DNA of 64,000 bases from Acidobacteriota bacterium. GTDB taxonomy: Bacteria > Acidobacteriota > UBA6911 > RPQK01 > JAJDTT01. Position numbers and translations under genes: made by a program. Where the stretch lies: the NCBI GenBank assembly GCA_965263035.1, contig OZ253580.1:2272001-2336000 (forward strand). The letters run 5' to 3'. Shown here one piece after another: positions 1 through 39,298 of the stretch (the first letter of the stretch is position 1; each line of letters starts with the position of its first letter). The notes under the pieces were generated by a model, which was given only the letters and a program-made list of their open reading frames with translations, was not told where the DNA came from and did no database searches.

Positions 1-464
1 GTCAGTAACATGTGCAGGCCTTCCGAGTGGTTGTTGTGCTCGGTGTGCATGGAGCGGATGAGGCAGATGTCGTCGGCGACGGTCGCCAGGTGAGGAATGG
101 TTTCGCCCAGTTCCATGCCGCTCTGGCCATGCCGGCTGAACTGGAACGGGCTGGCCAGCAACACGTTGGCATTGTTGGGCTGATGGATCTCGACCCCGTC
201 CGGGTGCGGCTTTCCGGACCACTTCGTCAGCTCGGGCTTGGGATCGAACAGGTCCATCTGGCTGGGGCCGCCGTTCTGGACGAACTGGATCACCGCCTTC
301 GCCGGACCCGGAAAGTGGCCGTCCCGCGGCTTCAGGTCGTTGTAGGCGAGGCGGTCCTCTTCGGCTTTCAGCATGCCGCCGAGGGCCACGCTGCCCATGC
401 CGAGAGCACTCATTTCCAGCAGTTTGCGGCGGGAGATGGTATGCGGAAGAACGTCCCAGATCAT
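1..464 (-). CDS. DUF1501 family protein (partial, runs off the window start)
   Basis: Manual minus-strand translation from ATG at 464 reads MIWDVLPHTISRRKLLEM...GGPSQMDLFDPKP...HGQSG...IRSMHT. These motifs match the DUF1501 paralogs at 26697 and 28740. Confidence 0.85.
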   Translation of the reverse strand, partial: MIWDVLPHTISRRKLLEMSALGMGSVALGGMLKAEEDRLAYNDLKPRDGHFPGPAKAVIQFVQNGGPSQMDLFDPKPELTKWSGKPHPDGVEIHQPNNANVLLASPFQFSRHGQSGMELGETIPHLATVADDICLIRSMHTEHNNHSEGLHMLL

Positions 465-515
465 GGCTCGAAGTCCCTGAGTCCAGTGGATTTGATCTGT
501 CCTCAATGCTACGCC

Positions 516-571
516 GTGGAGCGGCGACTTTCCAGCCGCCCAGGAGCGCCGACTTTCTTGCCGCCGATTAG
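516..571. repeat. REP-like hairpin cluster (3' exon of the intron)
   Basis: Two tandem units: GTGGAGCGGCGACTTTCCAGCCGCC and GGAGCGCCGACTTTCTTGCCGCCG. Confidence 0.8.
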
Positions 572-1201
572 ATCGGGTCGAGTGCAGGGGATTGCGCCCC
601 TGCACCCTCCCACACCACCGGACGTACCGTTTTCAGTATCCGGCGGTTGGAGTCACTCGAGGCTCTTTCGAGCCTCGTAAAGGGCCTTTCTTTCCGGTTT
701 TCGCCGCCGCTGGGACTTGATCTCCGCCCTTCCGGCTTGACGGGTTCCACCCTTGGGCCTTCCGTGCCGGGTCCGAGGGGCCTCCCCCCGCCCCGTTTCC
801 GGAGGTAGTTGCGATCCCGCTGACGAGTCCGCCATAGGGCCAGTCCGACTCCTTCGGTCCTTCGCTCCACCGGCATTATCCGGCTTCTTCGCTACTATGA
901 CCTCTGCTGACTTCTCAAAGGCTCTCACCCTTGAGATCTCCCCGAGTAAGGTGCTGCATCTTTCCCCCCGGGCCGCCCGGCTCTACCTGGTACGTCTGGA
1001 TGGGGTTCGGGTTTCGCTGTTGCTCGCCAGCTCACCGCCCGCACCCGGCCTCGCTGCCGGTTCGTGTTCCTGCGGTCGTGGGTTTGCCTTCCGCTTCCTT
1101 CAGCTTCACCTCGCGGCTACGCCTTGCGGTTCGGCTAGGGTTGGTCCCATCACCTCCCTTGGGATCTTTCATCCCTTAGATACAGCCCATGTCGGGCGCA
1201 C
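572..1201 (-). mobile_element. ORF-less group IIC intron (~630 nt)
   Basis: The minus strand starts GTGCGCCCGACATGGG (class IIC 5' end). Domain V is AACCGCCGGATACTGAAAACGGTACGTCCGGTGGTGTGGGAGG with a CGC triad. Domain VI is GGGTGCAGGGGCGCAATCCCCTGCACTCGACCCGAT, ending in AT. No RT ORF lies between these. Confidence 0.9.
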
Positions 1202-1324
1202 GAGCGGCGACTTTCTTGCCGCCGGACTCCGGTGGAACAAAGGAACAAGGAGGAAACGGGGCAACGGAAGAGTGGGGGACAAGAATGTCCCCCCTCCTGT
1301 CGGGCGATTAGAAATCGCCCCTCC
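1202..1324. repeat. REP-like hairpin cluster (5' exon of the intron)
   Basis: GAGCGGCGACTTTCTTGCCGCCG, GGGGGACAAGAATGTCCCCCCTCC and GGGCGATTAGAAATCGCCCCTCC. Confidence 0.8.
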
Positions 1325-1367
1325 TGGTACACTACGGAGCAACCACCTGTCCGGGAGTCGAAGCACT

Positions 1368-2120
1368 ATGAACCACCATCTGAAATTCTTTCTACCCTTG
1401 TCTTTGCTCTGGCTGTCCGCCTGCAACGTGACGGTCCCCGACAACCCCTCCCAGCCTGATCCTCCCGAACGCGGCCCGCGCACCCAGCCCGGCACCGCCA
1501 TGGGGATCTACGCCCCGAAACAGCACGACCTGTACGACGGCCGCTTCATCATCTCGGGGGGCCGCATCTACCAGGTCGGCACGCTGAACGACGAGAGCCC
1601 GTGGGACCATATGGGCAATGACGGATCGAACCTGAGGCCGGTGGAGGGCACGGTCGATTTCGACGTCGACGAGATCAACAACACGGGAACCTTCCGGGCC
1701 GAACTCCAATTGCCCGAGGGCAGCTACGTCATCGACCTGGAGGAATTCAAGGAATTCTCACCGTGTCAGGACGGCGGCATCGCGGCGTGGCTGTTCGAGC
1801 ACGGCGACTCCGGATGCGGCGATGCCAATTGGCCCAAGAGCATCCTCTACGTGGCCGGCTGGGGGATCGGCTCCGCCACCTTGAACGGCGAGCCGCTCTA
1901 CCAGGACTACCAGATCCATTTCATGGTCACCCAGGGCATGCGCGACCGGAACCTGGTGGCTCGCTATCCTCTCGACGGGAAAAATTCAGAGGCCGGCGCC
2001 GTCAACCCGGCCCTCCAGCAACTGGATTTCTACATCCGCAGTCCCAAAACCAATGAGGCCAACCATCCCAAGCGGGAAGTGTTCGACCACTTCTTCGCCA
2101 TGGAAGTCACCTGGAAATAG
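1368..2120 (+). CDS. hypothetical lipoprotein
   Basis: The likely start is MNHHLKFFLPLSLLWLSAC (lipobox). The longer ORF called from 753 reads through the antisense intron and REPs. Confidence 0.75.
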   Translation: MNHHLKFFLPLSLLWLSACNVTVPDNPSQPDPPERGPRTQPGTAMGIYAPKQHDLYDGRFIISGGRIYQVGTLNDESPWDHMGNDGSNLRPVEGTVDFDVDEINNTGTFRAELQLPEGSYVIDLEEFKEFSPCQDGGIAAWLFEHGDSGCGDANWPKSILYVAGWGIGSATLNGEPLYQDYQIHFMVTQGMRDRNLVARYPLDGKNSEAGAVNPALQQLDFYIRSPKTNEANHPKREVFDHFFAMEVTWK

Positions 2121-38942: not shown

Positions 38943-39298
38943 TGGTGGAGGCGGTGGGAATCGAACCCACGTCCGGAAGCCTTCGGCGGCAGAATCTACA
39001 TGCTTATCCAGTTTCCCGATCCGATCCAACTGGCATGGAAACTGGAAAAGCCGCCAGCCGAACCGTCCCTCATCAGGGTCTCAGTCCCTCGCCGAGGGAG
39101 GGGCAAGGAACTGACAAGCCCGCTGAAATGACGCCCCGAACCTCCCTGCGGGCCTGAAGGCCGGAACGACCGCGTTAATTACGCGGCGAGTGCGAACTCA
39201 TCGTTGGCACTTGATGTTTTTACCACGGTTTTACGAGGTGGTGGCACCTCGACATGCATCTACGACCTCAACTACTCCCGTCGAATCCAGTCGCCCCC
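38943..39298 (-). ncRNA. ssrA: tmRNA (SsrA), tag peptide ANDEFALAA
   Basis: 5' GGGGGCGACTGGATTCGAC; 3' GGTTCGATTCCCACCGCCTCCACCA; internal GCC AAC GAT GAG TTC GCA CTC GCC GCG TAA. Confidence 0.97.

Follow-up and report, generated by a model that had tools for sequence, protein, structure and literature searches.

A short group IIC intron without a reading frame and its preference for REP hairpins in an Acidobacteriota genome

Group II introns of class C (IIC) combine a small ribozyme with a reverse transcriptase (RT)/maturase devoid of an endonuclease domain. Those of the terminator type (B.h.I1, GsI-IIC, O.i.I1) recognize a DNA stem-loop followed by 3-4 nucleotides (nt) of intron-binding site 1 (IBS1) and one IBS3 base, and insertion of class C introns is biased to the lagging-strand template (PMC8919778, PMC4424553). 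A IIC sub-lineage, the IIC-attC introns of integrons, uses a non-terminator stem-loop that is the substrate of another recombination system (PMC4424553). Introns without an open reading frame (ORF) are rare in bacteria and are usually found alongside related RT-encoding introns (PMC4424553). The best-studied case of their proliferation is that of the thermophilic cyanobacterium Thermosynechococcus elongatus, whose TeI3 family contains 17 ORF-less copies stemming from one deletion and involves an RT of a different type (PMC2882425). Repetitive extragenic palindromic (REP) sequences, in turn, are preferred landing sites of some insertion sequences, and a group II intron of Pseudomonas putida KT2440 is REP-associated in two of its nine copies (PMC1525189). 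The present analysis concerns a window of 64,000 nt (G000:C1:2272001-2336000) from the genome of an Acidobacteriota bacterium (G000; 6.2 Mb, single contig, 62% GC), in which an ORF-less intron of 630 nt follows a REP hairpin with the tail GCTC. This element is very probably a non-autonomous group IIC retroelement, derived by a single ORF deletion, that has spread onto REP units carrying that tail.

The intron and its relatives in the host genome

Positions below 64,000 refer to the window and larger ones to the genome contig. On the minus strand the first base of the intron is G1201 and the last is U572 (GGCGGCAAGAAAGTCGCCGCTC / GTGCGCCCGAC ... CTCGACCCGAT / CTAATCGGCGGCAAGAAAGTCGGCGCTC, with slashes at the intron ends). 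The final C of GCTC (1205..1202) lies directly before it and C571 directly after, and its termini, GUGCG at 1201-1197 and GAU at 574-572, agree with the group II consensus GUGYG / AY. Rfam models cover the 3' half of domain I and domains II and III (Table 1), and the domain V-VI (D5-D6) model RF00029 (Intron_gpII) matches 648-572 with 39.0 bits and E 6e-6, one bit below its cut-off of 40. The minimum-free-energy (MFE) fold has the usual six-domain layout, with D4 at intron positions 349-553, D5 at 555-588 and D6 at 590-628. A consensus fold of nine family members contains 94 pairs, 13 of them with compensatory changes. The putative branch point is the A at intron position 624 (window 578; seventh base counted from the 3' end), which the MFE fold leaves unpaired. 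In class C introns CGC replaces AGC at the domain V catalytic triad, and CGC is what the RF00029 alignment places where the Rfam consensus has AGC. Weak Rfam matches over the REP hairpins (among them CrfA at 1261-1355, with 23 bits where the cut-off is 38) were sub-threshold and were taken as chance.

A BLAST search of the host genome with the intron gave 30 segments. They include 19 intact ORF-less copies (630-632 nt, 94.9-100% identity, many of them 99.7-100% identical), three further ORF-less copies interrupted by other DNA, a 51-nt fragment, and two full-length siblings of 1848 nt at 529488-531335 and 2572796-2574643. The 24 copies considered below are the intact, the interrupted and the full-length ones (19 + 3 + 2), so that some 22 ORF-less copies stand against two autonomous ones. 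Two of the interruptions are due to the same 1782-nt insertion sequence and the third to a 4.7-kb composite insert accompanied by a deletion. The 1782-nt element, which has terminal inverted repeats and about ten copies in the genome, lies at different positions and in opposite orientations in the two ORF-less copies (G000:C1, 3067891-3069672 and 3923464-3925242).

The search for an RT-encoding sibling called for by the original prediction was thus successful. The two siblings differ at six positions and carry an identical, intact open frame for a 409-aa RT with RVT_1 and GIIM domains, a TIGR04416 match of 362 bits and the YADD motif; the domain search found no endonuclease domain after the maturase domain. 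Compared with RTs of solved structure, the protein scored 451 bits over residues 87-482 to the GsI-IIC RT, 346 to 7uim (a group II intron RT/maturase), 124 to LtrA and 110 to the T. elongatus enzyme 6me0. By these domains and scores it belongs with the class C RT/maturases that lack an endonuclease domain. From the Rfam matches, the CGC triad, this sibling RT and the hairpin with a 4-nt IBS1 in all 24 copies, the segment 1201..572 (minus) is identified as an ORF-less group IIC intron, as had been claimed from the window alone. The other elements of that first description are likewise present at their predicted places, including the stem-loop near 1016-1031 assigned to exon-binding site 1 (EBS1).

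Alignment with the full-length siblings indicates how the short form arose. Identity is 98.6% over D1-D3 (350/355) and 98.9% over the 3' 91 nt, falls to 65.5% in the first part of D4, and reaches 91% again in a D4 block at intron positions 441-517. In the full-length sibling that block ends just before a Shine-Dalgarno-like GGGAGAGG and the ATG of MEQVV..., a location at which it may serve as a candidate RT-binding site. The frame, from about its ATG to about 10 bases before its stop, is replaced in the ORF-less form by GAGGCUC-GAAA-GAGCCUC, a GAAA-capped 7-bp hairpin, which accounts for the difference between 630 and 1848 nt and leaves a domain IV of 205 nt where about 200 had been predicted. 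All 19 intact copies align through the deletion junction, in an alignment of 632 columns with just two 1-nt indels, both elsewhere; therefore one deletion event took place, followed by multiplication. The lack of an ORF, the shared junction and a cognate RT-encoding sibling in the same genome are features expected of a non-autonomous, trans-mobilized intron. The ORF-less relatives of sister species have different junctions (648 nt in G001, 657 nt in G003, 650 nt in G008), and that of G003 retains the first and last codons of the frame. Hence, loss of the ORF either recurred or went in steps. Elsewhere in the phylum, two ORF-less IIC introns of about 640 nt from another family lie head to tail (L086; G116:C2, ~146050-147400), the 5' end of the second being degenerate, so that the genus of the host is not the only one with ORF-less IIC introns.

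The host genome also contains other group II sequences. A third family of about 2 kb, with matches to RF02003 and an RT only 36% identical to the IIC enzyme, is present in three full copies and one partial copy (G000:C1, 983787-984959, 5537423-5538595, 5842056-5843180 and 5053414-5054100). An isolated domain V-VI match with an AGC triad (G000:C1:340877-340952; L070:978-1053, minus; RF00029, 52 bits) has neither a D1 match nor an RT nearby and is probably an intron fragment. The window itself also carries a transfer-messenger RNA (tmRNA) gene at 38943-39298, minus (RF00023, 181 bits).

Table 1. Coordinates of the features at the intron locus, in window positions.
Feature	Position	Strand	Basis
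ORF-less group IIC intron, 630 nt, GUGCG...CCCGAU	572..1201	minus	Rfam matches; ends identical in 19 intact copies
5' exon, a REP unit made up of hairpin GGCGGC-AAGAAA-GTCGCC (1223..1206) and tail GCTC	1202..1223	minus	pattern matches; comparison of copies
IBS1 GCTC, last four exon bases	1202..1205	minus	24/24 copies follow GCTC; covaries with the EBS1 loop
EBS1 stem-loop GCUG-GCGAGCAA-CAGC in domain I; EBS1 GAGC at 1025..1022	1016..1031	minus	fold; covariation
Presumed IBS3, the C that opens the 3' exon	571..571	minus	C in 23/24 copies
3' half of domain I (group-II-D1D4-3, RF02001)	953..1120	minus	Rfam, 81.4 bits, cut-off 32, E 1e-14
Domains II and III (group-II-D1D4-1, RF01998)	857..950	minus	Rfam, 47.2 bits, cut-off 35; helices with compensatory changes
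Domain IV, 205 nt, without ORF	649..853 (intron 349-553)	minus	MFE fold; alignment to the full-length sibling
Conserved D4 block (intron 441-517), candidate RT-binding site	685..761	minus	91% identity to the sibling; alignment
GAGGCUC-GAAA-GAGCCUC hairpin (GAAA cap, 7 bp) at the ORF-deletion junction	659..676	minus	alignment to the sibling
Domain V, with CGC (645..643) in the place of the consensus AGC triad	615..646	minus	RF00029 alignment
Domain VI, bulged A at 578 (putative branch point)	575..611	minus	RF00029 alignment; MFE fold
The other two REP units of the array	519..565 (565-544, 540-519)	minus	REP pattern
Beginning of a DUF1501 gene, in the same orientation as the intron	3..464	minus	Pfam PF07394, E 2e-23; 107 nt downstream of the intron 3' end

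Target hairpin and guide sequence

The REP family GGCGRCAAGAAAGYCGCCGCTC numbers 224 units in the genome at up to 2 mismatches, 92 of them exact. Within the window the 22-nt pattern gave 14 matches at up to 3 mismatches and none in 100 shuffles. A high-copy palindrome of 22 nt falls in the 20-40 bp range of REPs, and the family was found in all four sister species searched. Classical REPs carry an unpaired GTAG or CGTC tag at one end (PMC3733652); here the unpaired end is GAGC or GAGG on the complementary strand, while a separate GTAG-tagged hairpin precedes 26 of the 135 GCTC-tailed units. The intron had been predicted to lie within a REP unit. The association with REPs held, but the intron does not split a unit. 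Of three units in tandem (1223-1202, 565-544 and 540-519, minus strand), it directly follows the 3' end of the first and precedes the second. At this locus, the one that was checked, the surroundings are intergenic. An attempt to describe the genes around each of the 24 copies, by means of long ORFs selected on GC content at third codon positions, was abandoned after it miscalled the neighbours in the window, because at 62% GC the antisense frame has the same third-position value.

GCTC precedes the intron in 24/24 copies and C follows it in 23. A stem of 6-8 bp (no more than one G-T pair) stops 3 nt short of the site in 21 copies and 4 nt short of it in one; the remaining two lie behind a 7-bp Watson-Crick stem and in a decayed REP. 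Overall, a hairpin ends 1-4 nt before the site in 23 of the 24 copies. The stems used vary (GGCGGC, GGCGAC, GGGGG, GGGGAC, GGCCATC) under a constant tail. Nineteen of the sites are in GGCGRCAAGAAAGYCGCCGCTC units at up to 2 mismatches and four in other short palindromic families with GCTC tails, the only unique hairpin among the 24 being that at 436206. The hairpin is followed by GCTC and C without a T-run, so that the target is neither an intrinsic terminator nor attC. This is a difference of target within the class and not of mechanism: stem-loop, short IBS1 and presumed IBS3 form the arrangement expected of class C.

The contribution of each part of the target was estimated by comparing occupied with empty sites in the host genome. 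Among exact REP units, 17 of the 92 tailed by GCTC are occupied and none of the 33 tailed by CCTC (Fisher p 0.006). Among 1233 sites in which a hairpin of at least 6 bp ends in the G of GCTC, a filter that two copies did not pass, occupancy is 18/116 (15.5%) for REPs and 4/1117 (0.36%) for other hairpins, an odds ratio of 51. In the family GGGGAC...GTCCCC one of three GCTC-tailed units contains an intron and none of 28 CCTC-tailed ones, because no copy follows CCTC. The preference for REPs is therefore very strong (18/116 versus 4/1117) but not absolute, and the idea that all copies follow REP-GCTC needs to be divided: GCTC is invariable, whereas only 19 of the 24 sites belong to the canonical REP family and specialization on it is not a strict rule.

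The sequence that would read this tail is the EBS1 loop GCGAGCAA at 1027-1020. Loop GCGAGCAA (GAGC) occurs together with exon GCTC in the host genome (24 sites), in G004 (2) and in G031 (1), and loop GCGAGGAA (GAGG) with exon CCTC in G003 (6 sites), G001 (1) and G008 (1). The lineage thus shows covariation between base four of the guide and the fourth-last exon base; the distant relatives in G019 and G024, with 5' ends that could not be placed confidently, were left out of this count. CCTC also precedes three additional G008 copies located at contig ends, whose loops are not assembled. In G003 all six copies follow CCTC, though the exact REPs of that species comprise 62 GCTC-tailed and 29 CCTC-tailed units. 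A survey with RF02001 detected IIC introns in 22 of the 151 phylum genomes sampled, the host included. It supplied 24 loci for a test of the loop, four of which were set aside for want of a recognisable 5' end or of enough upstream sequence. In 19 of the 20 other IIC introns, the three bases that end the exon pair with loop positions 3-5, over nine loop sequences; the sole exception is L098 (G104), with a loop that does not pair with the exon. Most of these relatives sit after classical T-rich terminators. D5-D6 was found in just two of the 20 loci, which extend only 1500 nt past the D1 match. The genus relatives are not independent samples and their covariation amounts to few events, so the phylum-wide pairing and the GCTC/CCTC contrast within one genome weigh more. 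Taken together, covariation in the genus, pairing in the phylum and the tail contrast support the assignment of the GAGC loop at 1025-1022 as the EBS1 that reads GCTC, as the original prediction had it.

Other repeats and mobile elements lie at or near these targets. In about ten copies the target REP makes up the 3' half of a composite repeat some 60 nt long (for instance G000:C1 2447181-2447240), whose 5' half is the GTAG-tagged hairpin GTAGAGT-GGGGAC-TCC-GTCCCC; introns occupy 8/26 composites and 11/109 plain GCTC-tailed units (p 0.012). A gene of 238 codons resembling Y1 transposases of the REP-associated tyrosine transposase (RAYT) kind (PF01797, E 2e-8) lies at G000:C1:2482816-2483529, minus (L110:1393-2106), with REP units and a copy of a second intron family on one flank only. 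A shorter match at 3478135 completes the two Y1_Tnp matches in total. The second intron family, unrelated to the first, is also ORF-less (643 nt, RF02005 at 164.5 bits, AGC triad) and has seven copies of 89-99% identity, ending in G000:C1 at 2436403, 3067443, 6114886, 2482159, 3352198, 3743852 and 680748 (example, L068:180-822). In six of them the insertion point is within the hairpin loop of the GGCGRCAAGAAAGYCGCCGCTC REP, but on its opposite strand (5' exon GGAGCGGCGACT, 3' exon TTCTTGTCGCC); the seventh, at 680748, is in a different palindrome. AGUCGC in a variable D1 loop of this family is complementary to the REP arm, a 6-base EBS1-like match. No cognate RT for it was identified.

Mobility and alternative explanations

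The orthologous locus was inspected in five sister species, whose flanks are about 90% identical, and the intron query gave no match there in any of them. The two flanks lie only 49 nt apart in G001 and 82 nt apart in G004. At this place G002 and G003 have about 950 nt of unrelated DNA, which contains two small reading frames, and G005 yielded the left flank alone. The intron would thus appear to have been mobile after speciation. The insert of about 950 nt (L113:2050-3005 in G002 and the matching part of L111 in G003) is orthologous to window 551-1202, and its two frames resemble, by eye, an antitoxin and PIN-toxin pair.

The orientation of the copies relative to replication gives further information. 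The cumulative GC-skew minimum (2873575) coincides with dnaA (2871758-2873065), and the maximum lies near 5.54 Mb, after which the curve is flat to about 5.8 Mb. Depending on where the terminus is placed, 19-20 of the 24 copies are co-oriented with fork movement, with their sense strand on the leading-strand sequence, the strand that receives the intron being the lagging-strand template. The same orientation is seen in 16 of the 19 occupied REPs and in 68-70 of the 205 empty ones (Fisher p ~2e-5). A bias of this kind favours entry at replication forks and speaks against the copies having been carried along passively with the REPs.

A pathway compatible with these data can be proposed. A full-length IIC intron of 1848 nt would have lost its reading frame in one deletion that left D1-D3, D5 and D6 nearly unchanged and kept the D4 block. 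The short RNA would be excised as a ribozyme, bound by the RT of the two full-length siblings and reverse spliced into single-stranded DNA at a replication fork. The target would be read in three parts, namely the DNA stem-loop, the GCTC that follows its 6-bp core through EBS1 GAGC, and the next base C, and cDNA synthesis may then be primed from the nascent lagging strand. Since the host offers hundreds of REP hairpins with a matching tail, presumably in non-coding DNA, such a process would yield about 22 ORF-less copies next to two autonomous ones. Mobilization in trans by the sibling RT is suggested by copy number, near-identity of the copies, the presence of the two siblings and the strand bias; splicing activity, the replication-fork route and the role of the D4 block are likewise predictions. 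Compatible with a dependence on the RT is the case of G001, a complete genome in one contig, which has a single ORF-less copy and in which a search with the sibling RT (E 1e-20) returned no RT above 36% identity.

The three rival explanations considered differ in what would choose the sites or carry the intron. A generalist intron that enters any stable stem-loop followed by GCTC and C, its REP bias resulting from later purging of insertions in coding DNA, with REPs as the most frequent harmless sites, would explain why the canonical family does not account for five of the 24 copies (of which one is at a unique hairpin), why the stems vary under a constant tail, and why in the G031 relative the GCTC tail follows a hairpin that is not a REP. 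It is nevertheless doubtful, given the fifty-fold difference in the odds of occupancy between REP and non-REP hairpins with GCTC; non-REP sites are still occupied in only 4/536 cases when the following C is required, and four of the five other sites belong to palindromic repeat families with GCTC tails. Much less credible is that the copies are immobile relics multiplied at the DNA level by REP/RAYT transposition, recombination between REPs or segmental duplication. The copies do sit in repeats that may be mobile, and the RAYT-like gene stands beside REPs at 2.4828 Mb, but most copies have a 3' flank of their own and the REP variant on the 5' side changes from copy to copy, so the unit that moved has exactly the ends of the intron. 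Moreover, occupied REPs have a strand bias opposite to that of empty ones, occupied units are GCTC-tailed only, and many copies are nearly or fully identical, which makes this the least probable of the alternatives. Integration without protein, or mobilization by another RT of the genome such as that of the 36%-identical family, is improbable too, if somewhat less so. The host has three complete genes and one partial gene for that second group II RT, and domain IV of the ORF-less form has diverged from that of the siblings. The ribozyme cores, however, are 98.6-98.9% identical to those of the cognate siblings and the D4 block by the start codon 91% identical; the second RT belongs with introns of different Rfam D1 models (RF02003, RF02005); and in G001, where an RT of the second type coexists with one ORF-less copy, that copy has not multiplied.

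Several observations weigh against a non-autonomous retroelement specialized on REP+GCTC and driven by its siblings. The five sites outside the canonical family imply that the REP itself is not strictly required, and part of the REP bias could be due to loss of insertions in genes rather than to recognition. Four or five copies have the wrong replication orientation. The score of RF00029 falls below its threshold, and D4 upstream of the conserved block is so divergent that binding of the RT to the ORF-less RNA is not assured. Besides, G003 has five RT-encoding copies and one ORF-less copy; hence RT supply alone does not predict ORF-less expansion.

RNA data add a further point on the same side. 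Assembled contigs of three metatranscriptome runs and of run X2, whose kind is not recorded, were placed on window 300-1500. Those within the intron stop at its ends or a few bases beyond, where the copies diverge, and so show neither splicing nor transcript ends; data of this type cannot reveal a splice junction, and splicing and mobility keep the status of predictions. Intron depth relative to the flanks is higher in the RNA runs than in X2, although contig depth cannot rank the parts. One X2 contig skips exactly 630 nt (571 to 1202). It was counted neither as an empty site nor as a spliced product, because the kind of that run is not recorded and the shorter side has just 23 letters, inside REP repeats. 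In all four runs contig depth at 833-914, in D3, is far above that of the rest of the intron, presumably through sharing with IIC introns of other organisms in the samples.

The interpretation as a non-autonomous retroelement may be carried one step further, to a parasitism in three layers. The autonomous IIC intron would supply the RT, the ORF-less derivative, comparable to a miniature inverted-repeat transposable element (MITE), would use it, and both would employ host REPs as a common landing pad, with the guide tracking the tail of each species (GAGC/GCTC in the host and G004; GAGG/CCTC in G001, G003 and G008). The second, unrelated ORF-less intron family, on the opposite strand of this REP, would be a further user of the pad. 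This extended picture is tentative, its chances being slightly short of even. As the IBS1 tetranucleotide stands in place of the classical REP tag, the intron and the REP transposase might read the same feature.

Comparison with known introns

Ribozyme size, RT/maturase type, target layout and strand bias are those of terminator-type IIC introns, and the EBS1 loop rule is shared with the phylum relatives of that type in 19/20. The target differs in that a REP hairpin without a T-run replaces the terminator and IBS1 is GCTC instead of T-rich; the distance from stem to site is 3-4 nt, versus mostly 5-10 nt in the terminator-associated relatives; and non-autonomous copies exceed autonomous ones by 22 to 2. 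In a mesophile-type genome of high GC, a non-autonomous IIC form has overtaken its autonomous parent by changing the tail that its 4-base guide reads, from that of T-rich terminators to that of a repeat abundant in the host. The case exemplifies how a retroelement may reach high copy number cheaply by colonizing another repeat family. It also constitutes a natural experiment on specificity, in which the same hairpin is used with one tail (GCTC, 17/92) and not with the other (CCTC, 0/33) while sister species show the reciprocal change of guide; the target rules of IIC introns are therefore testable by one-base swaps.

With the TeI3 introns of T. elongatus the element shares a single ORF deletion, a common break-point, RT-encoding relatives able to act in trans, and changes in domain IV possibly tied to RT recognition (PMC2882425). 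Ribozyme and RT type are different in the two systems, as the scores of the sibling RT to 6me0 (110 bits) and to the GsI-IIC RT (451) indicate. TeI3 targets rely on longer base pairing aided by high temperature (PMC2882425), whereas here the target is a structured repeat and four bases, and mobilization in trans is putative. The IIC-attC introns offer the parallel of a IIC sub-lineage settled on the substrate of another recombination system, although the target here is a REP family and not attC and there is no integron context. The insertion sequences that target REPs share the landing site. A full-text literature search gave, within the papers it covered, no description of REP-specialized IIC introns, the nearest entry being that of P. 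putida (PMC1525189). Against the two of nine REP-associated copies of that intron, 19 of the 24 copies described here are in one REP family and 23 when the related palindromic families are included, and the mechanism can be traced to pairing between EBS1 and the REP tail. What is new here is a IIC lineage whose target has changed from terminators to REPs and in which the non-autonomous derivative predominates.

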